A stretch of 62,732 nucleotides of DNA, the filler included, from Coriobacteriales bacterium (GTDB lineage Bacteria > Actinomycetota > Coriobacteriia > Coriobacteriales > UBA8131): assembly GCA_031263105.1 (NCBI GenBank). It is 5 parts of 5 records of this genome, joined end to end, with 100 filler letters (N's around TTAATTAATTAA, not from the genome) between each part and the next. Parts side by side here need not be neighbours in the genome. Positions count along the whole stretch, not along the records: positions 26,635 to 53,917 come from JAISGJ010000211.1; 4 more parts are not named here. One strand, written 5' to 3'. The first letter of the stretch is position 1. Every line of letters starts with the position of its first letter. Below the pieces are notes generated by a model that worked only from the letters and a program-made list of their open reading frames with translations, had not been told where the DNA came from and searched no databases. The position numbers and the translations under genes were made by a program. This document shows, in pieces, positions 16,330-59,920 of this stretch.

Positions 16330-16429
16330 NNNNNNNNNNNNNNNNNNNNNNNNNNNNNNNNNNNNNNNNNNNNTTAATTAATTAANNNNNNNNNNNNNNN
16401 NNNNNNNNNNNNNNNNNNNNNNNNNNNNN
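16330..16429. other. Artificial contig linker
   Basis: 100 nt of N with central TTAATTAATTAA (stops in six frames). Confidence 0.98.
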
Positions 16430-26534: not shown

Positions 26535-26634
26535 NNNNNNNNNNNNNNNNNNNNNNNNNNNNNNNNNNNNNNNNNNNNTTAATTAATTAANNNNNNNNNN
26601 NNNNNNNNNNNNNNNNNNNNNNNNNNNNNNNNNN
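26535..26634. other. Artificial contig linker
   Basis: N run with TTAATTAATTAA. Confidence 0.98.
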
Positions 26635-26750
26635 CCCCGGCTCTGCGTTGGGAACAGGCGGCATTACCACAAGTAGGGCCACCTGTTCCCGCCTTGACCC
26701 GGGGCAATCCGTCCCACAGGCTATCGTACAATTTATTACTTTACAGTTCC

Positions 26751-28958: not shown

Positions 28959-29037
28959 ATCCCCCCAGTGCGGGGATACGCGTATGCCACAATCACCGCG
29001 TTGCGGTGATACCTTCTGCCCGGTTCTCCCGTAGTGT
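28959..29037 (+). promoter_or_regulatory. Two 6-7-6 palindromic boxes and the -10 of the flavoprotein gene
   Basis: ATCCCC-N7-GGGGAT (28959-28977), ATCACC-N7-GGTGAT (28992-29010), TAGTGT at 29032. Confidence 0.65.
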
Positions 29038-29086
29038 GAGGCGCAGCCTGCTCTTCGCAGGGACACTCGGGAAAGAAGGAGATCAT

Positions 29087-31051
29087 ATGAGCGAGAACAA
29101 CGGGAGCAACGGGAGCAACGAGCACCACGACATGCTGAGCCGCAGGAGGTTCCTCGTGGGAGCGGGCATCGGCGCGGCGGGCCTTGTGGGAGCGGGCGCG
29201 TTGGCGGCCTGTGCCCCTTCGGCCGCCGGGAGCAGCGACGGAGATGGCGGGGCAGCCGGCAATGAGGGGGCGGCCGGAGGCGCATCCGGCGGCGCTGCCC
29301 CGGCAGCCGGCGGCGGCGGCGTGAACGGGACCATCGGCGGCGCCATCTGCGCCGACGACTGGCTGGGGACGATGCCCGAGATCGCCGAGGCAGACGTCTC
29401 GGAGACCGTCGATGTCGACGTCGTCGTCCTCGGCAGCGGACATGCGGGGACACAGGCTGCGCTTGCGGCGGCCCAGGCAGGGGCCACGGTCGCAGTCGTG
29501 GAGAGGCAGTCGGAGGAGAAGTACGTCTACTTCGGCGACGACATCTGCGCGTACAACTCGCAATGGATAACCGAGAAGGGCTTCGGCGGCTACAACACGG
29601 GCGAGATCACCGCAGAATACGTCCGGCGCGGCATCGGGCGCGTGTCCCCGGACATCATCAGGCTGTTCGTCGAGAACTCGGGGGAGATGTTCGACAACCT
29701 CGTCTCCCTGATACCTGAGACCAGCGACCTGCTCGACTACGAGGGCGGCCGTTGCGTCATCCAGGTGGCCTATGGCAAGGACAAGGGCAGCGACTACCCC
29801 ATAGCGCAGTCCAGCTTCAAGTCCTGGGCGACGACCGTGCAGACCGCCGCCACCATCAACCCCACGGAAGTGATACCCGGGCGCAAGCTCACCCGTCTGA
29901 CCGAGATAGAGACCTATTCGATGTGGGAGGCCGAGAAACTGGGTGCCACGTGGTACTGGGGCTGCTCTGCCGAGGCGCTCGTCATGGACGGCGATGCCGT
30001 CACGGGTGCCTACGCGCTCAAGGAGGACGGCAGCTATCTGCGCCTGAATGCCGCCAAGGGCGTGCTGCTGGCAACCGGGGACTTCTCCGCCAACCCCGAC
30101 ATGGTCTGGAACCTCCTTGACGACGTTGCCGAGTGGGGGAGCCGCGTCGGGATCGAGAGGACGGGCCTGATCGGTCCCGGCCGCGACGGCATGGGCCACA
30201 AGCTCGGCTGCTGGGCAGGCGGGGCCATAGAGCCCCATCCGCGCTCCTCCATGAACATCATGGGCGGACAGCCCGGCCCTTGGGGCACATCGGCCTTCCT
30301 GACCCTCAACAAGGACGGCAGGCGCTTCATGAACGAGAGCATGGCCCAGCTTGCCGGTGCCGCCTGCCTGAGGCAGCCCTTGGGCATCATCGCCTCTGTC
30401 ATGGACGCCAACTTCATGAAGACGGTACAGGGCGCGGGCCTCGATCATGGCGCACCGAACTGGGGCTATCCTCCCATGCTGGAACAGATGGAAGAGGACA
30501 TGCGCAACCTCCAGCCGGGGCCGGACGGCGGGCCGGTCACCTCGTGCTCCATCGTCAGCCTGAACGAGATCAACACCCATGACCCGGAAGGCGAGGCGAG
30601 CGGGGAGAGCTCGATGCCGCCGAGCATCGTGTTCGCGGCCGACAGCATCGAGGAGCTGCTCGGCTACCTTGGCTACAGCGGTGCGGAGCTGGAGACCGCG
30701 CTCGCAGAGATCGAGCGCTACAACGAGCTGTGCAGCCAGGGCAAGGACACGGACTTCGACAAGCAGGCCGATCTGATGATCCCCCTCGAGCAGGCGCCCT
30801 TCTATGGTGCGGTCGCAGAGAACTCCGGCATGACGTCCCCCGGCCTCGTGACGCTTGCGGGCCTTCTCACCGACGCGAGCCTCAACGTCATGAAGGCCGA
30901 CCGCTCCGGCCCCATCAAGGGCCTCTATGCGACCGGCAACTGCCTGGGCCAGCGCTACGGCATGGGCTATGGCACGCCTTCTGCAGGCAACTCGATGGGC
31001 ATGGCCATGACCCACGGGCGCGTCGCAGGCAAGATAATCGCGGCGCAGTGA
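29087..31051 (+). CDS. Tat-exported lipoprotein FAD-dependent oxidoreductase (flavocytochrome c / FAD_binding_2 family)
   Basis: SRRRFL, LAAC lipobox, GSGHAG, LATGDF, GRRFMNE, GLYATGN. Confidence 0.92.
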   Translation: MSENNGSNGSNEHHDMLSRRRFLVGAGIGAAGLVGAGALAACAPSAAGSSDGDGGAAGNEGAAGGASGGAAPAAGGGGVNGTIGGAICADDWLGTMPEIAEADVSETVDVDVVVLGSGHAGTQAALAAAQAGATVAVVERQSEEKYVYFGDDICAYNSQWITEKGFGGYNTGEITAEYVRRGIGRVSPDIIRLFVENSGEMFDNLVSLIPETSDLLDYEGGRCVIQVAYGKDKGSDYPIAQSSFKSWATTVQTAATINPTEVIPGRKLTRLTEIETYSMWEAEKLGATWYWGCSAEALVMDGDAVTGAYALKEDGSYLRLNAAKGVLLATGDFSANPDMVWNLLDDVAEWGSRVGIERTGLIGPGRDGMGHKLGCWAGGAIEPHPRSSMNIMGGQPGPWGTSAFLTLNKDGRRFMNESMAQLAGAACLRQPLGIIASVMDANFMKTVQGAGLDHGAPNWGYPPMLEQMEEDMRNLQPGPDGGPVTSCSIVSLNEINTHDPEGEASGESSMPPSIVFAADSIEELLGYLGYSGAELETALAEIERYNELCSQGKDTDFDKQADLMIPLEQAPFYGAVAENSGMTSPGLVTLAGLLTDASLNVMKADRSGPIKGLYATGNCLGQRYGMGYGTPSAGNSMGMAMTHGRVAGKIIAAQ

Positions 31052-31084
31052 CGCAGTAAGGAATTGTCGGGGAACAGGCACGAC

Positions 31085-31116
31085 GGATGCCGGCAGCCGG
31101 ATGGCTGCCGGCATCC
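31085..31116. terminator. Hairpin between convergent flavoprotein and TetR genes
   Basis: GGATGCCGGCAGCC-GGAT-GGCTGCCGGCATCC. Confidence 0.7.
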
Positions 31117-31683
31117 CTATTCCATCCACTCCTGCTTGACCGGTGAGATTTTCTGCCAATAGCTCAAAGTCCACTTGTTGAACAGATGGGCGAGCCGCGT
31201 CGGCTCGACATCCATCTTCCTCGTGAGCCAACGACTGATCAGGCTCGCATTCGCCGCAGAGAAGAAGAAGGCGGTGTACGCCTTCTCGTCGTCGGGCAGC
31301 TCGAAGTCCTTGAGCACCACGTCGTTCAGGGCGCTCAGCCGCTCGGTCAGAATGCGGACGAGCAGACTGCCGTGCTCGACGCGATTGATCCGCGAGTAGA
31401 ACCGCTCGTGATCTGCGATGCTCTGGTAGATGAGCTCCATCAGTATCTGCGGCGACGATTTTATCCGGAACGTGGGAATCGTCTCCAGCATCCGGTGCTG
31501 CGAGTCCACGACATCATCCTGAACGATGCTCGATAAGACGGTCTCCTTGTTCTGGAAACTATCATAAAACGACGCCCGGGAGACACCCGTCTCCTTGCAT
31601 ATCCGGGTAACGGAGATATCCTCGTAAGGGGTGGACAGAGCAAGCTCCCTGAAGCAGTTCTGGATACTTTGCCTGACAATCAT
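31117..31683 (-). CDS. TetR/AcrR-family regulator
   Basis: ISVTRICKETGVSRASFYDSFQNK HTH; GGAGGTG RBS; divergent from the Mo-enzyme operon. Confidence 0.9.
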   Translation of the reverse strand: MIVRQSIQNCFRELALSTPYEDISVTRICKETGVSRASFYDSFQNKETVLSSIVQDDVVDSQHRMLETIPTFRIKSSPQILMELIYQSIADHERFYSRINRVEHGSLLVRILTERLSALNDVVLKDFELPDDEKAYTAFFFSAANASLISRWLTRKMDVEPTRLAHLFNKWTLSYWQKISPVKQEWME

Positions 31684-31981
31684 AGGCCACCTCCGTAGAG
31701 CCTCCGTAGAGCCGTCTGCCCCGTCCTGCCCAATTATAGACCCAGCCCGCGCGTTCAACCACATGCGGGAGACGGCGGAACCGACAAAGTTCCTGCAAAA
31801 CCCCTGTTCTGCAAGGCATCCCCCTACAGAAGAGACGCTTTGTCTGGCCGACACCTGCAAAACAGCCGGTCAGTTGGAGAACTGCACTCAAAAGAGCGGT
31901 TTTGGCCTGTTGCTGGGCACGTAGCCGCAGGGTATCGTCGGACTATCGAGAACGACAAACAAAGAGCGAGAGGAGGCCCGG

Positions 31982-34651
31982 ATGAGCGAGCAGGTCGAGC
32001 AGGAAGGGCGGGAGCAGGCCCTTCGAGAGCAGGGCGTTCGGGAGCAGACCGTCATCAGGGGCATCGCCTGCGGAGGCACCGGCGGTGACGCGGTGGCGAT
32101 CGACTTCAAGGACGGGAGGATCGTCAGGTTCCGTCCGCTGCACTGGGACATGAGCTACCCATGGGACGACCTTCAAAAGGATCTCTGGGAGTTCGACATC
32201 GACGGCAAGGTGTTCAAGCCAGAGGTCAAGGCGGCCCCGAGCTACTTTGCGCTGGCGTACAAGAACCGCGTCTACTCCAAGAACCGCGTGCGCTACCCGC
32301 TGAAGCGCGTGGACTGGGAGCCGGGCGGGGACCCCGCCAAGACCAACGCCCAGAACCGTGGCATCAGCAAGTTCAAGCGCATCAGCTGGGACGAGGCCCT
32401 CGACATCATCGAGTCCGAGCTGCGCCGCATCATCGGGGACTACGGCCCCTTCGCCGTGCTCTGCATCGGCGAGAACGGCCACCGTGAGTCGAAGGACCTG
32501 CACTCCGGCGGCGGCATGCACGCCACGCTGATGAACGAGCTGGGCGGCTACACCCGCGAGACGCGCACGCCCGACAGCGTCGAAGGCTGGTACTGGGGGG
32601 CCAAGCACGTCTGGGGGCGAGGCTCCACCAACGGCCTCGGCCTGGCGGCGCCGATGGAGACCGGCTACAGCTCGTGGCTGGTCGCCTACGACCTCTGCGA
32701 GAGCTGCGACCTTATCGCCTTTCAGGCCGGCGACCTCGAGCTGACCCAGAACTACGCCGCGCAGGGCGTAAGCCGCCTGATCAAGTACTGGGAGGAGCTG
32801 GGCAAGGAGTTCGTCGTCATCGACCCGTTCTGCACCTATACGGCCGTCTGTCATGAGACGATGAAGTGGATACCCATCCTGCCGAACACGGACTCGGCGC
32901 TGGACTTCGCCCTGATGCACGTGTGGCTCACCGAGGGCCTGTACCAGAAGGACTACGTGGAGACCCACACGGTCCACTTCGACAGGCTCAGGGCCTATGT
33001 CCTCGGCGAGGAGGACGGCGAGCCCAAGACGCCGGAGTGGGCGTCCCCGCTCTGCGGCGTGCCCGAGTGGACCATCAAGGCACTGGCCCGCAAGTGGGGC
33101 ACGCAGCGCACGTCGCTGGCGCACTTCTCCAGCGGCTCGGTGAAAGGCCCCTACTCCCATGAGAACGGCCGCACCGCCGCCTACAAGATGGCGATGCAGG
33201 GCCTGGGCCGTCCCGGCGTGCAGCAGCTGCACATCAACGCCCTTGAGATGGCCAAGCCCATCATCGAGAACAGCACGGTGGGGCAGATGATCATGTGCAA
33301 CCGCTCCCGCATGTACGTGCCCACGGTGCAGTCCATCCCGCGCACCACGGTCGCCCATGCCATTCAGGACGGCGAAGTCACCTGGTGGGGCAGCCCCTCG
33401 ATCATCTGGGCCTCCACCGAGGACCAGTTCCAGGAGTACCGCTACCCTGCGCCCGCCGAGGCGGGCGGCACGCCCATCCGCATGATGTGGAGCGAGAAGC
33501 CCTGCAACATGGTCTGCTGGAACGGCGGCTTCAACTACCAGGACGCCATCCGCGACCCTCAGATCGAGTTCTTCCTCACCAATCACCAGTGGATGGAAAA
33601 CGACAGCCTCTTCTGCGACATGGTCCTGCCGGTGAGCACCTGCGTCGAGGAGAACGACGACGTGGGCGCCGGCATGGTGGTTCCCTTCAAGTACGTGGCC
33701 CTGAACAAGAGGGCCTGCGACCCCATCGGCGAGTCGATGAGCGACTACCAGATCGCCCTGGAGATCGGCAGGCGTTTCGGCGTGGACGAGAACATCTCGC
33801 TCGGCATGGACGAGGACGAGTGGTTCGAGTACGCCTTTGGCAACTCCCGGGTCAGCGAGGAGATCACCTGGGAGCAGTTCAAGGAGAAGAGCTACTACAT
33901 TCCCAAGATCGACCCGGACTGGAAGAAGCTGCCGCACGGCATGCAGAACTTCTATGAGGATCCGGAGGCCTATCCGCTGGACACGCCCACGGGGAAGATC
34001 GAGTTCTGGTCCGATGCGCTGGCAGAGCACTTCCCGAACGACAAGGAGCGTCAGCCGATGGCCCGCTGGATGATCGGCGGCCCGGCGGAAGAGGGCTGGA
34101 CGCACGACGAGACGCCCTTTGGCGAGAAGGCCAAGACTTATCCGCTGCTGCTGGTCTCCACCGCTGCGCGTTGGCGCGTGCATGTCCAGGGCGACGACAT
34201 CGCCTGGTTCCGCGAGATCGAGACCTGCAAGGTGCGCGGTTTCGACGGCTACGCCTACGAGCCTGTCTGGATGACTCCCGAGGACGCCGCCTCCCGTGGC
34301 ATCGCCGCCGGCGACATCGTCAAGGTGACAAACGACCAGGGGACGATTCTGTGCGGTGCCCGCATCTCAGGGCGCGTGACGCCTGGCTCCGTCATGGTCC
34401 ACAAGGGCGCACGGGTGGATCCCATAACGGACTGCCTGGATCGCGGCGGCGCCACCAACCTGATAAGCCCGCCACGTCGTATCTCCCAGCATTGCGTGGG
34501 CTTCGCGGTCACCAATTACCTGGTGGAGTGCTCCAAGCTGGAGCGGGCCGAGCTTGAGGAGTGGAAGCGGAACTATCCCGAGGCCTTTGCGCGGGACTAC
34601 GACCCGGCCATAGGCATCAACTACGCATCGTGGGTGGAAGGAGGCGAGTGA
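31982..34651 (+). CDS. Molybdo-bis-PGD (DMSO reductase family) catalytic subunit, pyrogallol transhydroxylase alpha (AthL)-like
   Basis: KDGRIVR, RVRYPLKR, RISWDEA, PDSVEGWYWGAKHVWG, TPTGKIEF, C-terminal molydop-binding domain; no Tat signal and no N-terminal Fe-S Cys motif. Confidence 0.9.
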   Translation: MSEQVEQEGREQALREQGVREQTVIRGIACGGTGGDAVAIDFKDGRIVRFRPLHWDMSYPWDDLQKDLWEFDIDGKVFKPEVKAAPSYFALAYKNRVYSKNRVRYPLKRVDWEPGGDPAKTNAQNRGISKFKRISWDEALDIIESELRRIIGDYGPFAVLCIGENGHRESKDLHSGGGMHATLMNELGGYTRETRTPDSVEGWYWGAKHVWGRGSTNGLGLAAPMETGYSSWLVAYDLCESCDLIAFQAGDLELTQNYAAQGVSRLIKYWEELGKEFVVIDPFCTYTAVCHETMKWIPILPNTDSALDFALMHVWLTEGLYQKDYVETHTVHFDRLRAYVLGEEDGEPKTPEWASPLCGVPEWTIKALARKWGTQRTSLAHFSSGSVKGPYSHENGRTAAYKMAMQGLGRPGVQQLHINALEMAKPIIENSTVGQMIMCNRSRMYVPTVQSIPRTTVAHAIQDGEVTWWGSPSIIWASTEDQFQEYRYPAPAEAGGTPIRMMWSEKPCNMVCWNGGFNYQDAIRDPQIEFFLTNHQWMENDSLFCDMVLPVSTCVEENDDVGAGMVVPFKYVALNKRACDPIGESMSDYQIALEIGRRFGVDENISLGMDEDEWFEYAFGNSRVSEEITWEQFKEKSYYIPKIDPDWKKLPHGMQNFYEDPEAYPLDTPTGKIEFWSDALAEHFPNDKERQPMARWMIGGPAEEGWTHDETPFGEKAKTYPLLLVSTAARWRVHVQGDDIAWFREIETCKVRGFDGYAYEPVWMTPEDAASRGIAAGDIVKVTNDQGTILCGARISGRVTPGSVMVHKGARVDPITDCLDRGGATNLISPPRRISQHCVGFAVTNYLVECSKLERAELEEWKRNYPEAFARDYDPAIGINYASWVEGGE

Positions 34652-34652
34652 G

Positions 34653-35456
34653 ATGGCAAAGGTGTTCGTTATCGATTACAGGAGCTGTGTCGGCTGCCAT
34701 GACTGCCAAATCGGCTGCAAGGACGAGCACTGCGGCAACGAGTGGGCCCCCTATGCCAGGGCGCAGCCCTTCGTCGGGCAGTTCTGGATGAAGGTCGACC
34801 AGCAGGAGCGCGGCAGACGGCCGCACATCAAGGTCACCCATCTGCCCACGCTCTGCCAGCACTGCGACGACGCGCCCTGCATCAAGGCTGCGCCGGACGC
34901 CGTCTACAAGCGCGACGACGGCCTGGTGATAATCGATCCCAAGAAGGCCGTCGGCAACGAGAGGCTGGCCAGGTCCTGCCCGTATGGCGCCATCTTTTGG
35001 AACGAGGAACTCAGGCTTCCGCAGAAGTGCACCGGTTGCGCCCATCTGCTCGACGGCGGCCACACCATCGACGTCCCGCGCTGTGTGGACAACTGCCATG
35101 TCAACGTCATTCAGTTCGGCGAGGAGGGCGACTTCGACCTCTCTGACTGCGAGGTCATGCACCCCGAGTACGGTACCAGCCCGCGCGTCTACTACAGAGG
35201 CGGGCTGCCCCGGAAGTTCGTGGCCGGCACCGTCTACGACCCTGTGGCGAAAGAGGTGCACGTCGGCGCCACGGTGGCGCTTGTCGGCGAGGCCGGTGCC
35301 TTTACGGCCGTCACTGACGACTGGGGCGACTTCTGGCTGCGCGATCTGCCCGACGCGGACTTCACGCTCACCATCGAGGCCGACGGCAAGGCAAAGACCT
35401 TGGAGGTCAGCACCAGGAAGGAGGACGTCGGTCTCGGCGACATCGCCCTTACCTGA
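34653..35456 (+). CDS. Poly-[4Fe-4S] subunit, transhydroxylase beta (BthL)-like
   Basis: CVGCHDCQIGCKDEH, CQHCDDAPC, CPYG, KCTGCAHLLD, PRC, PRVYY, C-terminal beta-sandwich (TDDWGDF). Confidence 0.9.
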   Translation: MAKVFVIDYRSCVGCHDCQIGCKDEHCGNEWAPYARAQPFVGQFWMKVDQQERGRRPHIKVTHLPTLCQHCDDAPCIKAAPDAVYKRDDGLVIIDPKKAVGNERLARSCPYGAIFWNEELRLPQKCTGCAHLLDGGHTIDVPRCVDNCHVNVIQFGEEGDFDLSDCEVMHPEYGTSPRVYYRGGLPRKFVAGTVYDPVAKEVHVGATVALVGEAGAFTAVTDDWGDFWLRDLPDADFTLTIEADGKAKTLEVSTRKEDVGLGDIALT

Positions 35457-35563
35457 CGCTGCGGCGGTCGCAGCTCACGGAGGCGGCGCATACGGACAGC
35501 GCATACAGACAGGGAGGGACGGTGCCGCGACCGCTCCTCCTCGGACCCCGAGGAGAGTCACCC

Positions 35564-35962
35564 ATGTGTTTCAGGCCAGCGGAGATACAGATGAACACGT
35601 GCCCGTCGTGCGGCAAGGTGAACAAGCCGATTGCCAAGATGTGCGCCGAGTGCGGAGCGGAGCTGCAGAGACAGACGAATGTCGTCTGCCCGATCTGCGG
35701 GTTCCAGAATCCGCCGACGGCCAAGGAGTGCGGTCAATGCGGTGCCACAGAGGCGCAGATCGTGGCAGCCATGGGCACTGCGCCCCGTGCCCCCAAGGCA
35801 CCGGGGATGCCCGCCGCCCCGCCGCGCCCGCCCGCCCCGCCTGCGCCCGGCATCCCCCGTTCGCCCGCCGCCCCGCCCGCGCCCGGAACGCCGCCCCGCC
35901 CACCCGCTGCGCCGCCCAGCATCCCCCGTCCGCCAGACAACGTTCAAAGGAGAACACCATGA
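35564..35962 (+). CDS. Double zinc-ribbon protein with Pro/Ala-rich tail
   Basis: MCFRP start, four CxxC pairs, GAGGAG RBS; ATGA overlap with the SDR. Confidence 0.8.
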   Translation: MCFRPAEIQMNTCPSCGKVNKPIAKMCAECGAELQRQTNVVCPICGFQNPPTAKECGQCGATEAQIVAAMGTAPRAPKAPGMPAAPPRPPAPPAPGIPRSPAAPPAPGTPPRPPAAPPSIPRPPDNVQRRTP

Positions 35963-36723
35963 GGCTCGGTAAACTCTCGTGCGAAGGCACGGTCGCCCTT
36001 GTCGCCGGGGCGAGCTCGGGCATCGGCAAGTCGTCGGCCCTGCTGCTGGCGCAGGCAGGCGCACAGGTCTTCCTCGTCGCCCGTCGGGCCGAGAAACTCG
36101 AAGAGCTCAAAGCTGCAATCGAGGCCGCAGGCGGCGCTGCGGACTGCTTTGCCGCCGATGTCTCGGAAGAGAGCAACTGCAAGGCTGCCGTCGAGGCCTG
36201 CGTCGAGCGCTTCGGCAGCGTGGACGTCCTCGTAAACAGCGTCGGCATGAACTCCGGCCGCATCGAGGACGCCTTCGACACCGAGAACTACCACAAGGTC
36301 ATCAAGGTTGACCTCGATGCGACGGTGTTCATGGTCAAGTACGCCTACCCGCTGATGAGCGATGCGGGCGGCGGCTCTATCATCAACATCTCGTCCAGTG
36401 CCGGCGTCAAGGCGATGGTCGACTCCGGCATCCCGTACACCGCGTCGAAGGGCGCCATTCGCAGTCTCAGCCGCATGTGGGGCAAGCAGTTCGCTCCGGC
36501 GCAGGTGCGCGTCAACAGCATCTACCCGGGATACATCCTCACGGAGATGACCACAGGCGCCTTCGACAACCCGGAGATCATGCCGTACTTCACCAAGGAC
36601 GTGCCCATGGGCACGATAGGCGAGGCGGACGACATCGGCTACTGCGTGCTCTATCTGGCCTCGTCGGCATCGAAGTACGTCACCGGTCAGGACTTCATCA
36701 TAGACGGCGGCATGACCTGCTGA
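35959..36723 (+). CDS. Short-chain dehydrogenase/reductase
   Basis: GASSGIG, NISS, YTASK, VRVNSIYPG, VTGQDFIIDGG. Confidence 0.93.
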   Translation: MRLGKLSCEGTVALVAGASSGIGKSSALLLAQAGAQVFLVARRAEKLEELKAAIEAAGGAADCFAADVSEESNCKAAVEACVERFGSVDVLVNSVGMNSGRIEDAFDTENYHKVIKVDLDATVFMVKYAYPLMSDAGGGSIINISSSAGVKAMVDSGIPYTASKGAIRSLSRMWGKQFAPAQVRVNSIYPGYILTEMTTGAFDNPEIMPYFTKDVPMGTIGEADDIGYCVLYLASSASKYVTGQDFIIDGGMTC

Positions 36724-36799
36724 AGGTGCAAGGCTTTGGGCACGAACCCGCACGGTAGCGGGCCACCTATACAAGCGTTTCGTTGAAAGGAGCACTGCC

Positions 36800-37666
36800 A
36801 TGGCCGAGAAAGAACCGAGTTTGATGCCCTTCGCTGTAGGCAAGATCACCGTTGCGACCTTGCAGAAGATGAAGGACGAGGGCACGCTGATAACGATGGT
36901 CGGCACGGGCCCCTGCGACGCCCTCTGGGTCCTGGCCTGTGAGCGCGCGGGCGTCGAGCTTGTCCGTTACGTCGCCTTTGGCGAGAACTGCGAGGACCGG
37001 GCGCGCAACCTCCACGCGCAGACGCGCGAGATCAGGAAGCTCGCTCCGATGATCTGCCTCAACGCGGTGATGAGCGACTGGACCTACGCGGACAAGTACC
37101 ACGCCACCGAGGTCGCCACCAAGCTGATGATGGACGGTGCCGACTGCGTGCTGCCGATGGGCGTGACCAACGAGACGCTGAAGTATATGTCCGACCGCTG
37201 CATTCCCGTGTTCGGCCATGTGGGCTGCCTCTCCGGCTGGCAGGCCAAGGCCTACGGCGGCTACAAGCGCATCGGCAAGACGGCCAGCGAGGCCATGGAC
37301 GTCTTCCGCATGGCCTACGAGTATCAAGAGAATGGCATGGTGGGCATGACCATCGAGATGACCTCGCGGGAGGTCACCGAGGCCATCGCCAAGAAGCTGC
37401 GCGTCCCCGTGATCGCAGTTGCCGCCGGCGGGGCGGCCGACGGCTCGGAGATGGTCATCTATGACCTGCTCGGCTTCCAGCCGGTGTCCACGATGGCCAA
37501 GCACTCCAAGCACTATCGCACCTATCTCGAGGATTCCATCGCGGCCTTCAAGGAGTTCGACACGGACATCAAGACACGCGCCTATCCCCAAAAGGAGCAC
37601 GGCTGGAGCATGGACGAGCGCGAGCTTGAGAAGTTCCTCACCGATCTGGACAACACCTACAAGTAA
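36800..37666 (+). CDS. Divergent PanB (ketopantoate hydroxymethyltransferase)-like protein
   Basis: ITVATLQKMK, IPVFGHVG, GGYKRIGK, IEM, VPVI, DGSEMVIYDLLG, YPQKEH; lacks GDS. Confidence 0.85.
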   Translation: MAEKEPSLMPFAVGKITVATLQKMKDEGTLITMVGTGPCDALWVLACERAGVELVRYVAFGENCEDRARNLHAQTREIRKLAPMICLNAVMSDWTYADKYHATEVATKLMMDGADCVLPMGVTNETLKYMSDRCIPVFGHVGCLSGWQAKAYGGYKRIGKTASEAMDVFRMAYEYQENGMVGMTIEMTSREVTEAIAKKLRVPVIAVAAGGAADGSEMVIYDLLGFQPVSTMAKHSKHYRTYLEDSIAAFKEFDTDIKTRAYPQKEHGWSMDERELEKFLTDLDNTYK

Positions 37667-37752
37667 TCAGCGGACAGCCGTCTTCCCGTCAGAACGGCAG
37701 GGCGATGCCGGACGGGAAGACGGCCGCTGACTCGAACAGGGAGGTACAAGCG

Positions 37753-39036
37753 ATGGACGCTTCTGTGAATAAGAGCATGAGGTTCAAGGCGAACAAGGCC
37801 TACTTCGGCAGTCTGATCATGGCCGCTTTCTGCCTGGGGTCCTATATCACGTTCTCCAACTACTGGAATCCTCTGGCTGCCAAGCTGGGCGTTTCCCTCG
37901 GACAGATTTCCATAATCATCAGCATAGCCAGTCTGACCAGTGTCATCACCGCCCTGGTCTTGGGGGCGCTGCTCAAGAGAATCAAGATCCGGCTGCTTGT
38001 CAGCATCGCTGCTGTGATCATCATCGCCTTCTTCGTTGCGATATCCCTTGCCACCGACATCATCGCGCTGTATATCATGGCCATACCCTTTGGATTTGCG
38101 ACGGTGGCAGCGGGTTTCCCAGGTGCTCAGGTGATAATGGCCTGGTGGTTCAAAAAGGGCCTTGGCAAGCGGATGAGTTTTCTGGCTATCGGACTGGCGC
38201 TCGTGATCATGACCCTGAGCCCCACGCTGGCAGCATCCATCGAGGCCTACTCTGTGAGTCAGGTGGCGCTGGTGCACGGGCTGGTGGCAGGTGGCGTGAT
38301 TCTGCTCTGCGCGATATTCCTGCTTGCCGAGAAGCCGAGTGAGTACGGTTATGAGGTGCCTGACGAGAAGCCCAAGCAGGTAAGCGAGGCCGAGGCAGGG
38401 CAGATCGAGCATACGGCGGACAAGACCCTCACCGTCAAGGAGATCCTGCGCACCAAGCCGTTCTGGATGATCCTGATCGGCATCTTCGTGGCCTGTATCG
38501 CCACCACGGGGCTGGGCAACAACTCAGCCCCGTTCTTCGAGTCGCTGAACCTCAGCCCCGTCGAGGCAGGAATCTGCGTTGGCGCCTTGGGCATCGCCAC
38601 CTTGGTCTGGGGACCGGTCTTCGGTGTCCTTCTTGATAAGTTCGGGGTGTCCAAGGCCACGACGATGCAGGGAGGCCTGCTCACCGTCGTCTTCTTCGCG
38701 GCCGCCTTTGTGGCAGGGCTCGGCTTCATCCCCGCCCTGATCATTGCCGTCATGCTGGACGCATCGGCTTTCACCGGGAACCTCGGAGCCGTGGCCTATA
38801 CAAAGATCTACGGGCAAAAGGAATCCGCTTCGCTCATCGGCTTTGCCTCGACGGCCTCTGCTTCTGCGGCGATGGTGGGCACCCCTCTGGCAGCGTTCAT
38901 ATTCACCGCCACCAACTCCTACATGATGTTCATGTTCTTCTCCGGAATCCTGGTGGCGGTCTGCGTGGTGCTGGTGATACTCGCTACCCGCATCAGGATA
39001 GTCAAGCCCGAGTCAACACCTGGACAGGAGGGATAG
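37753..39036 (+). CDS. MFS transporter
   Basis: 12 hydrophobic segments, WFKKGLG, LLDKFG; GGGAGG RBS. Confidence 0.9.
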   Translation: MDASVNKSMRFKANKAYFGSLIMAAFCLGSYITFSNYWNPLAAKLGVSLGQISIIISIASLTSVITALVLGALLKRIKIRLLVSIAAVIIIAFFVAISLATDIIALYIMAIPFGFATVAAGFPGAQVIMAWWFKKGLGKRMSFLAIGLALVIMTLSPTLAASIEAYSVSQVALVHGLVAGGVILLCAIFLLAEKPSEYGYEVPDEKPKQVSEAEAGQIEHTADKTLTVKEILRTKPFWMILIGIFVACIATTGLGNNSAPFFESLNLSPVEAGICVGALGIATLVWGPVFGVLLDKFGVSKATTMQGGLLTVVFFAAAFVAGLGFIPALIIAVMLDASAFTGNLGAVAYTKIYGQKESASLIGFASTASASAAMVGTPLAAFIFTATNSYMMFMFFSGILVAVCVVLVILATRIRIVKPESTPGQEG

Positions 39037-39037
39037 G

Positions 39038-39904
39038 ATGTATTCGTTTCACGAGGGTTACCAACGGGCGCTCGGCATCGACGAGACCGGCGTTCCCGGA
39101 ATGTCGAGGGGCACGAACAACGACCCGTCCATGAGCGAGATCCTGAATCTGACCGGCAAGGTCGCCATCGTCACAGGCGGGGCAATGGGCCTGGGGTTCT
39201 GCGTCGTTAACCGCCTGTGCGAGGCAGGGGCCCGTGTGGTTATCGCCGATGTGGCCGACGAGTATGCCGAGAGGGCCTTGGGCTACTTCGGCGACAAGGG
39301 CTATGTCGTTAGGTTCGTAAAGGCAGACGTGACCGACGTCGCCCAGGTCAAGGCCGCCGTGGACTTCACGGTCAAGGAGTTCGGTGCGGTCGACATCCTC
39401 GTCACCGATGCCGGGGTCTGGGCCCATGCGCTGCTCTCGGAGATCACCGAGGAGACCTTCTATGAGATGATCGACATCAACCTGAAGGGCACCCTGTTCT
39501 TCATCCAGGCTGTGGCAGACGCGATGGAGAGGCAGGAGACAGGCGGCCGCATCGTCACCGTCGCCTCGGTCGCAGGCCTTTCCGCCGATCAGGCTCCCAT
39601 CATGTTCGAGTATGTCGCGTCCAAATCGGCGGTCGTCGCCCTGACGAAGTCTCTGGCAAAGGGCCTCAAGCACAAGGGCATTCGCATCAACTGCGTCCTG
39701 CCCGGCGGCATGCTGACGCCCGGTGCGATGACCACGCATGGCACAGAGGCCGCCAAGGAGCTCCGCGAGTCCACTAGGTCGCCCCTTGCCGACCCCGACG
39801 ATGTCGCCCGTGTGATATTCATGCTGTCCACGCCTATCAGCGACTTCATGTACGGCGCGACCCTTTCCGTCGACGGCGGGGCCTTCCTGGGCATCGAGGA
39901 GTGA
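39038..39904 (+). CDS. Short-chain dehydrogenase/reductase with N-terminal extension
   Basis: TGGAMGLG, ADVTD, YVASK, IRINCVLPG, VDGG. Confidence 0.93.
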   Translation: MYSFHEGYQRALGIDETGVPGMSRGTNNDPSMSEILNLTGKVAIVTGGAMGLGFCVVNRLCEAGARVVIADVADEYAERALGYFGDKGYVVRFVKADVTDVAQVKAAVDFTVKEFGAVDILVTDAGVWAHALLSEITEETFYEMIDINLKGTLFFIQAVADAMERQETGGRIVTVASVAGLSADQAPIMFEYVASKSAVVALTKSLAKGLKHKGIRINCVLPGGMLTPGAMTTHGTEAAKELRESTRSPLADPDDVARVIFMLSTPISDFMYGATLSVDGGAFLGIEE

Positions 39905-39946
39905 CGGATGTTCGTTGGCGGCAATTGGTTTTGAAAGGAAGAGGAC

Positions 39947-41620
39947 ATGGCCCACCCATCGGACATCGAGATAGCGCAGTCGGCTGCCCCCCGGCCCATC
40001 GCGGAGGTCGCCGGGGAGCTGGGGATAGGGCCGGGGCACCTTGAGCCCTACGGCCGCTACAAGGCCAAGGTCGGGCTCGGCGTCCTGGACGACGGCCCCG
40101 CTCCTGACGGGAAGCTCATCCTGGTCACCGCCATGACCCCCACGCCCGCCGGCGAGGGCAAGACCACCACGACCGTCGGGTTCGCGGACGCGCTCTCGCG
40201 CCTCGGCAGGCGCCCCGTCGTCGCCCTGCGCGAGCCCTCGCTCGGCCCCGTGTTCGGCGTCAAGGGGGGCGCGGCGGGCGGCGGCTACGCCCAGGTGGTC
40301 CCCATGGAGGACATCAACCTTCACTTCACGGGCGACCTCCACGCCGTAGGCGCGGCCAACAACCTCCTGGCGGCCATGCTCGACAACCACATCCACCAGG
40401 GCAACGCGCTGGGCGTCGACGCCCGCAGCATAACCTGGCGGCGCTGCGTGGACATGAACGACCGGCAGCTGCGGAGCGTCGTGGACGGTCTCGGCGGGTG
40501 CGCGAACGGCACGCCGCGCGAGGACGGTTTCGATATCACGGTGGCGTCGGAGGTCATGGCGGTGCTCTGCCTGGCGGGGTCGCCCGCCGACCTCAGGGAG
40601 CGGCTGGCGCGCGTCGTCGTGGCCTACGACCGCGCGGGTGCGCCCGTCACCGCGGGCGACCTCAAGGCGGCGGGCGCGATGGCGGCGCTGCTGAAGGACG
40701 CCCTGAGCCCCAACCTCGTGCAGACGCTGGAAGGGACCCCCGCCCTCGTCCACGGCGGCCCGTTCGCCAACATCGCCCACGGCTGCAACTCCGTCACGGC
40801 CACGCGCATGGCGCTGTCCCTGGGCGACTACGCGGTGACCGAGGCGGGCTTCGGGGCCGACCTCGGCGCGGAGAAGTTCCTGGACATCAAGTGCCGCATG
40901 GCGGGGCTTGTGCCCGACGCGGTCGTCGTGGTCGCCACCGTGCGGGCGCTCAAGCACCACGGCGGCGTGCGCAGGGAGGACTTGGGGGCCGAGGATCTCG
41001 ACGCGCTGAAAAAGGGCCTGCCCAACCTGCTGCGGCACGTGGAGAACATCACCGAGGTCTACGGGCTGCCCTGCGCGGTCGCCGTCAATCAGTTCCCCAC
41101 CGACACGCCCGCCGAGCTGAGGCTTGTGGAGGACAGGTGCCGTGAGCTGGACGTCAGCGTCGCCCGGTCCGAGGTCTGGGCAAAGGGCGGCGAGGGCGGC
41201 CTGGCGCTCGCGGAGGAGGTGGTGCGCCTCGCGGGTCAGCAAAGCGACTTTACGTTCAGCTATCCGGACTGGCTTTCGATAGAAGAGAAGCTGCATACGA
41301 TCGCAACAAGGATATACCGCGCAGACGGCATCGACCTGACGCCGCAGGCGAAGGAGCAGGCAAAGACGCTGGAAGAGCTGGGCTTCGGCGGCCTGCCGGT
41401 CTGCGTCGCCAAGACCCAGTACTCCTTCTCCGACGACCCCGCCCTGCTCGGCGCCCCCACAGGCTTCCGCGTCACCGTGCGCAACCTGAAGGTATCGGCG
41501 GGCGCGGGCTTCATCGTGGCCTTGACCGGCGACGTCATGACGATGCCGGGGCTCCCGAAGGCCCCCGCCGCCGAGAGGATCGACGTGGACGCCTCCGGCA
41601 GGATAAACGGGCTGTTCTGA
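39947..41620 (+). CDS. fhs: Formate--tetrahydrofolate ligase
   Basis: [49 protein letters not shown]. Confidence 0.98.
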
Positions 41621-41695
41621 TGGGCGCGGCGCCTACAGAACGCCCTTGTGAAGAGCGACATCGGGTTTTCTTGAACGTTGTGAGGAGGTCTTCAC

Positions 41696-42544
41696 ATGGC
41701 GCGGACACTCAAGGGCACCGAGGTCGCCGAAGCACTGAACAGTGAGACGATCAAGGAGGTCGAGGCACTGAAGGCAGGAGGCGTCGAGCCGACGCTCGCC
41801 ATCCTGCGTGTCGGCGAGCGCGCAGACGACGTCTCCTACGAGAGGGGTGTGGCGAGACGGGCCGAGAAGGTCGGCGTAGCTGTCAGGAACATCGTGCTTC
41901 CTGCCGATGCCGGACAAGACGCATTGACCAAGGCCATCGAAGCCCTCAACGCCGACAGCTCCGTGCACGGCGTCCTCATGTTTCGGCCGCTGCCGCCGTC
42001 CCTCGACGAGGGTGTCGCCCGCAACGCGCTCGACCCAGCCAAGGACGTGGACGGCATCACCGATGCGTCGCTTGCCGGCGTCTTTGCCGGTGCGAATACC
42101 GGATATGCCCCCTGCACACCGAGCGCCTGCATGGAGCTGCTTGACCACTACGGCATCGACCCTGCGGGCAGGAGCGTCGTCGTCGTGGGGCGCAGCCTCG
42201 TGGTCGGCAAGCCGGTGGCCATGATGCTGCTCGGTCGCAACGCCACAGTCACTGTCTGCCACTCCCGGACGAAGGAGCTTTTCTCAGTCGTGCGAGAAGC
42301 CGACATCGTTATCGCCTGTGTGGGATGCGCTCATCTGCTTGGTACAGATCACCTTGCCCCCGGCCAGATCGTCATCGATGTGGGGATCAACGTCGCAGAC
42401 GATGGGACGCTTGTCGGCGACGTTGACTTTGAGGCCGCACGAGGCGTCGTTGATGCCCTTACCCCCGTACCTGGCGGTGTAGGCACGGTGACGACCAGTG
42501 TGCTTGTCAAGCATGTCGTCGAGGCGGCCATGCGGCAGACGTAA
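41696..42544 (+). CDS. folD: Methylene-THF dehydrogenase (FolD family)
   Basis: KDVDG, PCT, GRSLVVGKP, DVGIN, GDVDF, PVPGGVG. Confidence 0.95.
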   Translation: MARTLKGTEVAEALNSETIKEVEALKAGGVEPTLAILRVGERADDVSYERGVARRAEKVGVAVRNIVLPADAGQDALTKAIEALNADSSVHGVLMFRPLPPSLDEGVARNALDPAKDVDGITDASLAGVFAGANTGYAPCTPSACMELLDHYGIDPAGRSVVVVGRSLVVGKPVAMMLLGRNATVTVCHSRTKELFSVVREADIVIACVGCAHLLGTDHLAPGQIVIDVGINVADDGTLVGDVDFEAARGVVDALTPVPGGVGTVTTSVLVKHVVEAAMRQT

Positions 42545-42583
42545 GTAAAGCGGTCGGTCCAGGATGACGCAGGACGTGAGCGA

Positions 42584-42950
42584 GAACGTGTACAATAGGC
42601 CCATCAGCCGATTTTGAGGAGATGCTTAAGATTCGCAGTCCCACTATCGCTCGTAAGGCGGTGCAGTGCCTATGGAGCCCCCCGATTTCAAGGTAACCGA
42701 AGAAATCGAAGGGCTTGCGTACAATTGAATCGGCGGCGCGAACATAAAATGGAACTTCACGAAATTCCTCATAGACCGCAAAGGCGAGGTCGTCGCCCGC
42801 TACGCGCCGACCAAGACGCCCGCCGCGCTCGCAGGCGGCATTGCGAGGCTGCTGGAGGACGAGGGCTGATGCCAGAAGGCGCAGGCCCTGCTAATCCCTC
42901 CGAAGATGGCGCGGTTCAAGCCGCCGCCGCGTCAGGCCATCCTCGCAGCG
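42584..42950 (+). pseudogene. Internally deleted duplicate of the fic-gpx region (fic promoter/5' end fused to gpx 3' end)
   Basis: 42584-42719 matches 44834-44969; 42715-42729 matches 46076-46090; 42729-42950 matches 46475-46696. Confidence 0.9.
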
Positions 42951-43462
42951 ATTTTTGCCACCGTTCGGATGTTGCGGCTCGTGAACTTGTCCCTCATGCT
43001 CTTGCGGCCGAGGACTCCCGAGAACCCCGAATCTAACGTAGCGCCTTTGCGGCACTGCCAGTAGAAGACGCCGTTGCTGACTTTGGCGGCCTCGCCTTCC
43101 GACGGCGTGACCTTGTCGAACTCGTCCCGCAAGGTGGCCTCGAAGCCCGGTTCGCAGATAAGGGCATAGGTGTGAAGCTCTGCATTCTCCTCGAATGGCG
43201 CGGAAGCAAGCATCGACACGACCTCCTCGGCGCTCTTCACAAACAGGCTCACGGTGTCGCCGAAGCGCTCCGAGAGCGCCTGTTCCAGAGAGCCCCGAAG
43301 CTCGCCCTGCGGCATGTCGGACTCGAATACCAGGTTACCGGTCGCCAGCACCGGCACCGCTCCTGTCAGCCCTGCCGCCTGCAACGCATCGCAGGCCTCG
43401 GCCATCCTCATCGTCTTGCCGCCGATGTTCACGCCTCGCAAGAACGCGCAGTAGGTTGCCAT
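42932..43462 (-). CDS. DUF1697-family protein
   Basis: AFLRGVNIGG, LATGNLVF, TSRNIRTV. Confidence 0.88.
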   Translation of the reverse strand: MATYCAFLRGVNIGGKTMRMAEACDALQAAGLTGAVPVLATGNLVFESDMPQGELRGSLEQALSERFGDTVSLFVKSAEEVVSMLASAPFEENAELHTYALICEPGFEATLRDEFDKVTPSEGEAAKVSNGVFYWQCRKGATLDSGFSGVLGRKSMRDKFTSRNIRTVAKIAARMA

Positions 43463-43572
43463 GACCGCTCCTTGGTCCCTCGCTCACATCCGTAGGCGCG
43501 AAAAGGCGCCACCGACAAGTATAGCTGTTGAGGGGCACCACCCCAGGGAGGCGATGATTAATCATCGCCTCC

Positions 43573-44682
43573 CTAGATGCTTCCTTTGAGATGTTCGCCC
43601 AAATAGGGGATGGCAAACTCCAGCTCGCCGCGCCCCGGAGATGCGATGGCCCCTGCCTCGATAAGGCGACTTTTGTAGGTTTGGACATGCGAGGCGGAAG
43701 CCTTCAGTCTCGACCTGATGTCCGAGACTCGGGAAGCTCCCTCGTCTTTTGCCATGGCTGCGAGGAACCGCCTGTCCTCTTTCGACAAGAGCCTCAAGAC
43801 CGGAGCGTAGAGGTTGTCCACTAGGGCACGCTTCGAGTTAAGGATTGCCAAATCGACCAGGGTGGACGAAGCCATCCTATCCTCGCCAACCGAATCGACG
43901 ATGTTGTAGCCTATCAACTGCAGCAGATACGGATAGCCCTGCGTGGCTGCTGCTGCGGCGTCGATTGACGTGGCATCGATATCGATATGCAGATCCTGGA
44001 AGGCAACGAGGTAATATGCACTGACCTCGGCCAGCGGCAGTTCGCCCAACTGTTCCTTTTCCGCTCGGTTGAGGAACGTGAGCACCCTGTCGTTGAGAAC
44101 CGACGAAATTGCATCGGGCAATCCCGCCATAGCGACCGCGACATCCATCCCGTCGCCCACCAGTTCCTGGTAGGCTGTCGCAAACTCCTGCACCTCGTCG
44201 GAGGTGGAACGCACCTCGTCGACGAGGAACAGGATGCCCATGCCCCGCCTGTTAATCTCTTCGCAAAGCAACGCCAGCTTGGTCTGGAAGCCATAGTTGT
44301 TCTGAATTTCGTCAGAAAAGGTGAGCCCGAACGAGAAACCGAGTGCCCCGGCGCTGATGCCCTTTATCGGCTTCTTCCTGTCCAGCAGGTGGGCGCCTTG
44401 CAGCTGTGTCTTTTCGATAAGGTTGTCGAGCATCTTCTTGTTGGCAGTCACCCGTACTGGCATGAAGCCTCTGGCCTGCGCTCGGTCCGCCAGCTCAAGT
44501 AACAGCGCGGTCTTGCCCATACCGCGCTGCCCGACGAACAGGGTGGCACGATGCGGATGGCCAGGGTTCCCCGCGAGGCCTTCGATGAACCTCTCGATTA
44601 CCTGTTGCCGCCCGACGAACTGCTGGGGCTTGTTCCCAAACGTCGGGGAGAACACATTTGTGATTGCCACAGTGACCTCCAT
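43573..44682 (-). CDS. AAA ATPase with C-terminal wHTH
   Basis: NVFSPTFG, GQRGMGKT, LVDEV, TFLNRA, GYPYLLQL, RLIEAGAI. Confidence 0.88.
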   Translation of the reverse strand: MEVTVAITNVFSPTFGNKPQQFVGRQQVIERFIEGLAGNPGHPHRATLFVGQRGMGKTALLLELADRAQARGFMPVRVTANKKMLDNLIEKTQLQGAHLLDRKKPIKGISAGALGFSFGLTFSDEIQNNYGFQTKLALLCEEINRRGMGILFLVDEVRSTSDEVQEFATAYQELVGDGMDVAVAMAGLPDAISSVLNDRVLTFLNRAEKEQLGELPLAEVSAYYLVAFQDLHIDIDATSIDAAAAATQGYPYLLQLIGYNIVDSVGEDRMASSTLVDLAILNSKRALVDNLYAPVLRLLSKEDRRFLAAMAKDEGASRVSDIRSRLKASASHVQTYKSRLIEAGAIASPGRGELEFAIPYLGEHLKGSI

Positions 44683-50259: not shown

Positions 50260-50342
50260 GTGTGGCTCTCTTTCTTCCCGGTTTGTTTGCACTCCTGCTT
50301 TCGCACGGAGTGTGCGTGCTCTCTGCCCTGCAGGGCATCTAC

Positions 50343-50438
50343 AGGATAGAGGCAAAGGAAGCCCGCATCCTCACGTGTTTCCGGGTATTGTGTCTTGTGT
50401 GCGGGTGGATTGGGCACAAATACCCGATAATGGGTGAG
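50343..50438 (-). promoter_or_regulatory. Two 6-7-6 boxes and the -10 of the second flavoprotein gene
   Basis: CTCACG-N7-GGGTAT (50370-50388), ATACCC-N7-GGTGAG (50420-50438), minus-strand TATCCT at 50348. Confidence 0.6.
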
Positions 50439-53065: not shown

Positions 53066-53227
53066 CCTCGTTATCCCTTCCCTCATCCTCGGGCATCCGG
53101 ATCCCGGTGCTCCCTGTCGTCGAGCAGCGGGTTTTCAACCATACATCATGCGCTTCTTCCGCACTCGCCTGTGCGCGGCACAGGCGAGTGGCGCCTCGAA
53201 TGCCGACCCCTCCATTATAACGGTAGC

Positions 53228-53917: not shown

Positions 53918-54017
53918 NNNNNNNNNNNNNNNNNNNNNNNNNNNNNNNNNNNNNNNNNNNNTTAATTAATTAANNNNNNNNNNNNNNNNNNNNNNNNNNN
54001 NNNNNNNNNNNNNNNNN
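53918..54017. other. Artificial contig linker
   Basis: N run with TTAATTAATTAA. Confidence 0.98.
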
Positions 54018-59820: not shown

Positions 59821-59920
59821 NNNNNNNNNNNNNNNNNNNNNNNNNNNNNNNNNNNNNNNNNNNNTTAATTAATTAANNNNNNNNNNNNNNNNNNNNNNNN
59901 NNNNNNNNNNNNNNNNNNNN
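59821..59920. other. Artificial contig linker
   Basis: N run with TTAATTAATTAA. Confidence 0.98.

Follow-up and report, generated by a model that had tools for sequence, protein, structure and literature searches.

The window, a stretch of 62,732 nucleotides from a Coriobacteriales metagenome-assembled genome (MAG; GCA_031263105.1), carries at 36800–37666 (+) a gene for a 288-residue relative of ketopantoate hydroxymethyltransferase (PanB; EC 2.1.2.11) that has no equivalents of E. coli Asp45, Ser46, Asp84, Lys112 and Glu114 and keeps His140 and Glu186. We take Asp45, Asp84 and Glu114 to be the Mg2+ ligands of E. coli PanB (structure 1m3u), Ser46 and Lys112 to bind the carboxylate of the 2-oxo acid, and Glu181, the counterpart of Glu186, to be the catalytic base. 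The same replacements run through a monophyletic clade, in which the Mg2+/2-oxo-acid pocket is predicted to have been rebuilt throughout; this subfamily is apparently large, widespread, unstudied and systematically misnamed. The strongest functional clue is the presence of formate-tetrahydrofolate ligase (FTHFS) and FolD genes directly downstream, with folate one-carbon (C1) genes recurring in related loci. We give about an even chance to a tetrahydrofolate (THF)-dependent, hydroxymethyl-level C1 transfer on a substrate other than a 2-oxo acid, in which both the use of THF and the type of substrate are what we infer.

A PanB-fold protein without the canonical metal site

The open reading frame (ORF) at 36800–37666 (+) is a genuine gene. 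A Shine-Dalgarno-like GAAAGGAG, read directly from the sequence, lies 7 nt 5′ of its ATG, and its GC content at third codon positions (0.89) is similar to that of neighbouring genes. The product matches PF02548 over profile positions 1–258 of 259 with 137.4 bits (cut-off 28.7), which places it in the broad PanB family; with the NCBIfam PanB models (TIGR00222, NF001452) it reaches 89 bits (cut-off 207.55) and 100.9 bits (cut-off 272), far short of both. The AlphaFold2 model (pLDDT 93.6, pTM 0.86), calculated from a 145-row alignment (A1), was compared with the PDB by Foldseek. Solved PanBs are the best matches (3vav, 1o68, 1m3u, 3ez4, 1oy0 and 1o66; probability 1.00), with 21–26% identity and TM by target of 0.71–0.83, and among the matches listed only PanB appears through rank 17. 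Enzymes of the ICL/PEPM superfamily follow from rank 29, with E-values about 1e-9 (2e-9 to 4e-8) and 12–14% identity. We are confident that the query is a PanB-fold protein, as the initial annotation had expected, and its ESM Atlas clusters carry only the name 'putative PanB'.

The query and its relatives were aligned by MAFFT with E. coli K-12 PanB, taken from its annotated record. E. coli 44-GDSLG-48 faces V58-A59 and a three-residue gap, and no acidic or Ser residue is present in the query segment 54-LVRYVAFG-61. E. coli 83-ADLP-86 corresponds to A89-V90-M91-S92, and 112-KIEG-115 to L118-P119-M120-G121; the loop after strand 2 is shorter than in E. coli PanB. The Mg2+ ligands are thus represented by Ala or a gap, Val90 and Met120, and the carboxylate binders by the deletion and Leu118. 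The initial annotation had read GDS as absent, ADLP as AVMS and KIEG as LPMG, and each of these changes lies where it had been placed. The motifs that it had listed as kept are all located as well: G135-H136-L137-G138 is matched by G139-H140-V141-G142, L180-E181-C182 by I185-E186-M187, and GGYK (153–156) and DGSEMVIYDLLG (214–225) are retained. K237/Y239 are also conserved between the subfamily and canonical PanB, and Glu186 and His140 are invariant across all 145 rows of A1. Since the MAFFT alignments recover no Asp/Asp/Glu triad in the query, the proposed loss of the acidic ligands with retention of the catalytic Glu and His stands. In the phmmer pairwise alignment with N. meningitidis PanB (1o66) the register slides and D93 comes opposite the ADLP Asp; the 1m3u alignment from the same search and both MAFFT alignments set V90 there. 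At position 93, Thr or Ser is found in 102 of the 111 close homologues and Asp in just 4, so D93 is no conserved substitute ligand.

The substitutions are a trait of a monophyletic subfamily

A word-indexed search gave 540 matches, the best 120 at 57–89% identity; the source names listed for these, bar one ('hypothetical protein'), are 3-methyl-2-oxobutanoate or ketopantoate hydroxymethyltransferase. An exhaustive search of 1.84 billion representatives returned full-length subfamily members at 356, 316, 293, 211 and 197 bits. The scores leave a gap between the subfamily (196 bits or more) and the rest (114 or less), apart from one tandem-domain protein at 157 bits. This protein (P0127, 542 aa), the nearest relative outside the subfamily, is composed of two tandem PanB-family domains. 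No fused form of the subfamily was found among proteins of 505–2000 aa at E <= 1e-30, which is weak evidence.

Among the 111 homologues, the Asp45 column holds Ala (88), Ser (7), Gly (5) and Cys (5), the Asp84 column Val (106), the Lys112 column Met (55) and Leu (49), and the Glu114 column Met (108) and Leu (3); the His136 and Glu181 columns are His and Glu in 111/111. A genome scan yielded 70 loci with 79 PanB-family ORFs, L068 being dropped for a match below 230 aa: 59 subfamily loci (L001–L059) with 69 copies, and 11 canonical loci (L060–L070). The canonical copies read D-S-D-K-E-H-E in 10/10. In the 69 subfamily copies the Asp84 position is Val, Tyr, Phe or Trp, and R56, N88, N124, W147, R/K157, E217 and H235 are invariant. 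Because the five residues are gone and the His and Glu kept in all 111 homologues and all 69 copies, the substitutions are a family trait, neither chance nor decay. The query itself differs from the subfamily consensus in four places: T20 (His in 104/111), M84 (Asn in 100), S92 (Gln in 99) and D93. PF02548 scores are 123–150 bits for subfamily copies and 346–368 for canonical PanB.

A 98-row tree was calculated from the query, every second locus copy (35 of the 69), 4 representatives, and two outside sets: 28 PanBs with the triad and 30 other relatives without it. The 40 subfamily rows fall on one side of a branch with an SH-aLRT of 100; the subfamily is monophyletic. Near relatives outside it can be triad-less too: 30 of 63 that are full-length (P0130–P0256) lack the triad and keep His136 and Glu181, one of them having Tyr in place of Lys112 and Gly or Ala in place of Asp84. 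These relatives form no single clade with the query subfamily in the tree, which suggests that the PanB family may hold several unrecognised functional groups.

Carriers in the genome scan are mostly anaerobes, including the acetogen genera Acetobacterium and Blautia, with up to 3 paralogues per locus. Among the cultivable ones are Acetobacterium woodii, A. fimetarium, A. malicum, Alkalibaculum sporogenes and Alkalibacter mobilis. The nearest relatives of the query belong to Clostridia and a Treponema MAG (63–67% identity). No subfamily-level match was found in 30 relatives of the source genome (18 genera of the family and 12 other families of the order), three of which gave matches of 28–32% identity, so the PanB-like gene is accessory in this lineage. 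A search of the open-access literature (PMC and bioRxiv, subscription journals not covered) found no report of a PanB subfamily without the metal site, or of a cluster of PanB-like, short-chain dehydrogenase/reductase (SDR) and FTHFS genes.

Evidence against a role in pantothenate synthesis

The source genome (2.9 Mb, 86% complete, 6.5% contaminated) gave no match to PanC (PF02569) and no PF02548 protein other than the query. Among five carrier genomes searched whole, three contain canonical PanB with one or two subfamily copies, and two (G002 and G005) contain a subfamily copy only. No pan gene occurs across 22 neighbourhoods annotated by Pfam. The query thus departs from ketopantoate hydroxymethyltransferase in equivalog score, metal ligands, carboxylate binders and pathway context. 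The reaction other than that of ketopantoate proposed in the initial annotation is well supported: the clade as a whole has exchanged the five Mg2+/2-oxo-acid residues for mainly hydrophobic ones, canonical PanB coexists in three genomes, PanC is not found in the source genome, and the neighbourhood described below is catabolic and folate-C1 in character rather than pantothenate-related.

The gene array in the window

The window consists of several joined contigs of one MAG, separated by N-runs at 16330–16429, 26535–26634, 53918–54017 and 59821–59920. Positions 26635–53917 are one 27,283-bp contig, the sole part that is physically contiguous with the PanB-like gene. The array and the regulator upstream of it are as follows.

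31117–31860 (−): divergent TetR-family regulator, upstream of the array
31982–34651 (+): molybdopterin oxidoreductase large subunit; best solved relative pyrogallol hydroxytransferase (4v4c, 324 bits)
34653–35456 (+): 4Fe-4S dicluster beta subunit with a C-terminal CarboxypepD_reg domain
35522–35962 (+): double zinc-ribbon protein whose long tail is rich in Pro and Ala; no NCBIfam family
35959–36723 (+): SDR1, 254-aa short-chain dehydrogenase of the classical type; 4-nt overlap between its start and the stop of the gene before it
36785–36792 (+): Shine-Dalgarno-like sequence
36800–37666 (+): PanB-like gene
37705–39036 (+): MFS transporter; best NCBIfam matches lactate and oxalate/formate-antiporter families, all below cut-off
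39038–39904 (+): SDR-A, 288 aa, of which ~40 form an N-terminal extension
39947–41620 (+): FTHFS; second copy in the source genome
41696–42544 (+): FolD (methylene-THF dehydrogenase/cyclohydrolase)

From SDR1 through FolD all genes share a strand, and no gap between them exceeds 76 nt. A promoter and terminator scan of 31000–43600 gave counts no higher than in shuffled sequence, so that strand and spacing alone define the limits of the operon. The other FTHFS copy of the genome adjoins MTHFR on contig C24, which makes the FTHFS of the array an extra copy. SDR-A orthologues (40–53% identity) adjoin PanB-like genes in Acetobacterium woodii, Alkalibaculum, Spirochaetia, Mogibacterium and an Actinomycetes MAG. 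SDR1 has no match of at least 150 bits in the 59 related loci and is particular to this locus. Searches of solved structures with SDR1 and SDR-A gave generic SDR matches, with no phloroglucinol reductase among those listed.

The two-subunit Mo enzyme (31982–35456, +) is closest to the pyrogallol-phloroglucinol transhydroxylase of Pelobacter. The first domain of its large subunit is AhtL-like, below the Pfam cut-off, and no twin-arginine motif was seen by eye in the first 40 residues. A similar Mo enzyme pair adjoins the PanB-like gene in L038, a Coriobacteriales MAG. Elsewhere on the contig, a long LuxR-type regulator (519–534 aa) stands beside an FAD_binding_2 flavoprotein reductase in two pairs, at 27027–28631 (+) with 29006–31051 (+) and at 48514–50355 (−) with 50528–52087 (+), a pairing that we take to be typical of substrate-inducible reductases in Coriobacteriia. 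One ORF at 52139–53086 (−) joins an isochorismatase domain to a rifampin ADP-ribosyltransferase (Arr) domain. No RNA dataset carrying the window sequence is listed.

Folate C1 genes and SDRs recur around subfamily genes

Partners were counted by tblastn in the 59 subfamily and 11 canonical loci, with bit-score thresholds that we set ourselves and flanks of at most 8 kb, several contigs being short. The counts in the subfamily loci are as follows.

Small LuxR/GerE regulator (~250 aa): 47/59
SDR-A type: 30/59
SDR-B type: 18/59
SDR-A or SDR-B: 47/59
GroEL-type chaperonin: 24/59
Trigger-factor C-terminal-domain protein (TF-C, ~175 aa): 21/59
FTHFS: 10/59
FolC or FolC-MTHFS: 8/59
FocA: 7/59
Zinc-dependent alcohol dehydrogenase (Zn-ADH): 5/59
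FolD: 4/59
GcvT-like: 4/59
FchA: 3/59
FolT-type ECF component: 3/59
VOC: 3/59
Transhydroxylase-like Mo enzyme: 1/59 (L038)

The canonical loci contain none of these partners, bar one MFS match. Of the 12 loci without SDR-A or SDR-B, five have other SDR genes (L002, L003, L005, L007 and L028), and in four the contig does not exceed 6 kb. Several loci form arrays on one strand: SDR, two atypical SDRs, TF-C, PanB-like, FTHFS, FchA, FolD, FocA, an unknown gene and FolC-MTHFS in L047; FTHFS, FolD, FocA and PanB-like in L003; SDR, Zn-ADH, FolT, FTHFS, FocA and PanB-like in L005; and SDR-A, PanB-like, MFS, FTHFS and FchA in L008. The ECF component belongs to the FolT family (133.6 bits, cut-off 60). 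MTHFR is absent from the folate-gene arrays in the annotated loci. The Acetobacterium loci L015 and L016 contain the PanB-like gene with an adjacent SDR and LuxR, and none of the counted folate-C1 genes. Parts of corrinoid O-demethylases, a xanthine dehydrogenase (XDH)-type Mo enzyme, a glycyl-radical enzyme, an old yellow enzyme (OYE) and an aldo-keto reductase, each present in 1–2 of the 59 loci, were rejected as systematic partners.

Other features recur in these islands. FolC is fused to 5-formyl-THF cyclo-ligase (FolC-MTHFS) at L047:13955–15775 (+) and L042:7–1740 (−) and adjoins FolT-type ECF and FTHFS genes; together the three look like a compact folate-maintenance module attached to PanB-like loci. 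A GcvT-like, folate-binding protein of the aminomethyltransferase family stands with a 407–422-aa protein without a Pfam family in 4–5 of the 59 loci (L006:2603–3622 with L006:1285–2550, L025:3969–4982 with L025:5016–6236, and also L053 and L058), and the pair may be another folate-dependent system for C1 removal. An atypical SDR with an insertion (L047:5502–6344, +, and relatives) is present in 9/59 loci; its best NCBIfam match is the coniferyl-alcohol dehydrogenase subfamily, at 177 bits (cut-off 242), about twice the next SDR match.

The GroEL-type genes (L047:2351–4003, −; L041:4042–5616, −; L042:10441–12093, +; and 21 further loci) are second, lower-scoring copies beside another copy elsewhere in 5/5 genomes checked. 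The TF-C proteins (for example L047:7232–7807, + and L025:7320–7841, +) are made only of the trigger-factor C-terminal domain. Neither gene is on the contig at 26635–53917. The pairing resembles what we take to be dedicated trigger-factor-like and GroEL-like chaperones of reductive-dehalogenase clusters, and its conservation beside PanB-like genes is a separate puzzle.

A proposed folate-dependent C1 transfer

The lost residues are, we assume, metal ligands throughout the ICL/PEPM superfamily, and the kept ones presumably common only to canonical PanB and not to the wider superfamily. The lost Mg2+/2-oxo-acid residues, the kept PanB-only residues and the folate-C1 neighbours, accompanied by genes for folate salvage and uptake, together argue for a folate-dependent enzyme that handles C1 at the formaldehyde level. 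On such an enzyme THF would exchange a hydroxymethyl group with a carbon acid other than a 2-oxo acid. The catabolic direction appears most likely, clearly favoured over the biosynthetic one. An imported substrate would be oxidised by the partner SDR from a secondary alcohol to a ketone; the PanB-like enzyme, with Glu186 and His140 as acid/base, would then remove the beta-hydroxymethyl group in a retro-aldol reaction and pass it on as 5,10-methylene-THF, from which FolD and FTHFS, encoded downstream, would produce formate, NAD(P)H and ATP. The MTHFR-free arrays fit an entry of C1 at the methylene level. With an SDR almost always as partner, the substrate may well carry an alcohol/ketone (enolisable) function; an aromatic or otherwise apolar one would fit the replacement residues, which are mainly hydrophobic, as well as the MFS transporters and the window's transhydroxylase-like enzyme. 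The phenolate or enolate substrate of the initial annotation finds weak support in the context, namely the pyrogallol-hydroxytransferase-like Mo enzyme here and in one of the 59 loci and the near-universal SDR.

Several points weigh against this proposal. No folate gene lies within the fetched flanks of 49 of the 59 loci; many of these belong to acetogens that have such genes elsewhere, which would explain the gap but supplies no evidence. The 59 loci are phylogenetically non-independent, and the partner counts hinge on the tblastn thresholds. Retention of the THF site is predicted solely from shared conserved residues. Only the canonical metal site is gone; the metal-independent reaction that the initial annotation held probable is a presumption, as the invariant E217 and H235 could, with H140 and E186, rebuild a relocated site. 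As to direction, pantoate synthesis itself runs from PanB to a reductase, and FTHFS, FolD and FocA can each work in reverse.

A narrower version of the C1-transfer proposal, which we hold to be speculative, is an anaerobic, folate-coupled 'dehydroxymethylase' that strips the gamma-CH2OH of lignin-derived phenylpropanoids onto THF without the canonical metal site. In these phenylpropanoid units or dimers, which are 1-aryl-1,3-diols, oxidation of the benzylic alcohol (C-alpha) by the SDR would give a beta-hydroxy ketone, from which the PanB-like enzyme would move the gamma-CH2OH directly onto THF. The anaerobe and acetogen carriers, the SDR nearest the coniferyl-alcohol dehydrogenase subfamily and the formaldehyde precedent in aerobes are hints only; Acetobacterium and Blautia are O-demethylators. 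A termite gut metagenome is the only DNA dataset listed with the window, and it is probably the source of the window and so not independent.

The alternative that survives best, itself unlikely, is an enzyme of the same barrel that works without THF through the His/Glu pair, as a formaldehyde-releasing retro-aldolase/lyase, an isomerase, a tautomerase or a hydrolase, the nearby folate genes mopping up formaldehyde or formate. It would account for the many loci without a folate gene in their flanks, and the ICL/PEPM superfamily, which is also matched by fold, includes many C-C lyases and mutases that work without folate. Against it, the residues that the subfamily has lost are those that we take to be the metal ligands of that superfamily, and those it keeps are common only to canonical PanB; the same-strand FTHFS, FolD, FchA, FolC-MTHFS and FolT arrays look like a dedicated folate cycle, not detoxification. 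A precedent for such release exists in aerobic lignin-dimer pathways, in which, according to the review PMC12997858, the enzymes LdpA, PcfL and PinVW shed the gamma-CH2OH as free formaldehyde.

Somewhat less probable is the same chemistry in the biosynthetic direction, with methylene-THF supplied from formate by FTHFS and FolD, hydroxymethylation of a ketone or phenol, reduction by the SDR and export of a 1,3-diol-type metabolite by the MFS protein. Here the gene pair would mirror PanB and ketopantoate reductase, which occur as PanB-PanE fusions among canonical relatives; the folate enzymes and FocA can run either way, and product export would suit an MFS pump with a LuxR regulator. The presence of up to 3 paralogues per locus speaks against it, as do the variable accessories of catabolic type (transhydroxylase-like Mo, XDH-type Mo, glycyl-radical enzyme with OYE, Zn-ADH and VOC), and no biosynthetic scaffold genes are nearby. 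The carriers, acetogens and gut and sediment anaerobes, are known as substituent harvesters.

A true ketopantoate hydroxymethyltransferase with a relocated metal/2-oxoisovalerate site (His140, Glu186, Glu217, His235, Arg56 and Arg157) is very improbable: the protein passes the Pfam PanB threshold, canonical PanB is missing from G002, G005 and the source genome, and the new invariant Glu, His and Arg could in principle bind metal and carboxylate, but the scores far below the equivalog cut-offs, the coexistence with canonical PanB in 3/5 genomes, the missing PanC and pan genes and the multiple copies per locus speak against it, and a gene not found in the 30 host relatives looks accessory, not housekeeping.

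If the folate-dependent C1 transfer is correct, gut, rumen, termite and sediment anaerobes are wrongly credited with vitamin B5 synthesis in hundreds of database entries, the clade extends a family whose only other known reaction is that of PanB, and C1 enters the folate pool at the methylene level by an unrecognised route, possibly tied to the breakdown of plant aromatics. It would also pose the enzymological question of how a carbanion or enolate is stabilised on the PanB scaffold without the Mg2+ site. Were the lignin version true, acetogens and termite-gut and sediment bacteria would gain a second energy-yielding harvest of lignin C1 beside O-demethylation, each C1 yielding an ATP and an NAD(P)H via FolD and FTHFS.

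Comparison with known systems

The subfamily shares with PanB (1m3u from E. coli, 1o66 and 1o68 from N. meningitidis, 1oy0 from M. tuberculosis) the fold, the Pfam family, His136, Glu181, the GGY loop, the DG..V..D..G motif and K237/Y239, and probably methylene-THF/THF as second substrate. It differs in the replacement of Asp45, Ser46, Asp84, Lys112 and Glu114, in the shorter loop after strand 2, in the new invariant R56, N88, N124, W147, E217 and H235, and in having no pantothenate-pathway context.

The ICL/PEPM enzymes (2-methylisocitrate lyase, PEP mutase, phosphonopyruvate hydrolase and oxaloacetate decarboxylase) have the same barrel with a swapped C-terminal helix. Their divalent-metal site is formed by acidic residues at the ends of strands 2–4, the positions of the lost PanB ligands; the query matches them in fold, at only 12–14% identity, and lacks the acidic metal ligands that they need.

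The O-demethylases LigM and DesA, and SesA, which we take to act on methylenedioxy groups, transfer C1 of plant compounds straight onto THF, from which FTHFS/FolD-type genes take over, and may thereby resemble the proposed role. They have the unrelated GcvT fold and break C-O bonds, whereas a PanB-type enzyme would act on C-C bonds, forming or cleaving them, with C1 at the level of a hydroxymethyl group. The review PMC12997858 lists ligM, metF and ligH together. The aerobic lignin-dimer C-gamma formaldehyde lyases LdpA, PcfL and PinVW are not known to have the PanB fold. Fold relatives of LigM, DesA and SesA do occur near the subfamily, as the GcvT-like genes of 4/59 PanB-like loci. LdpA, PcfL and PinVW offer a possible functional analogy in the removal of a gamma-hydroxymethyl group, and differ in that they release free formaldehyde and do so in aerobes (PMC12997858).

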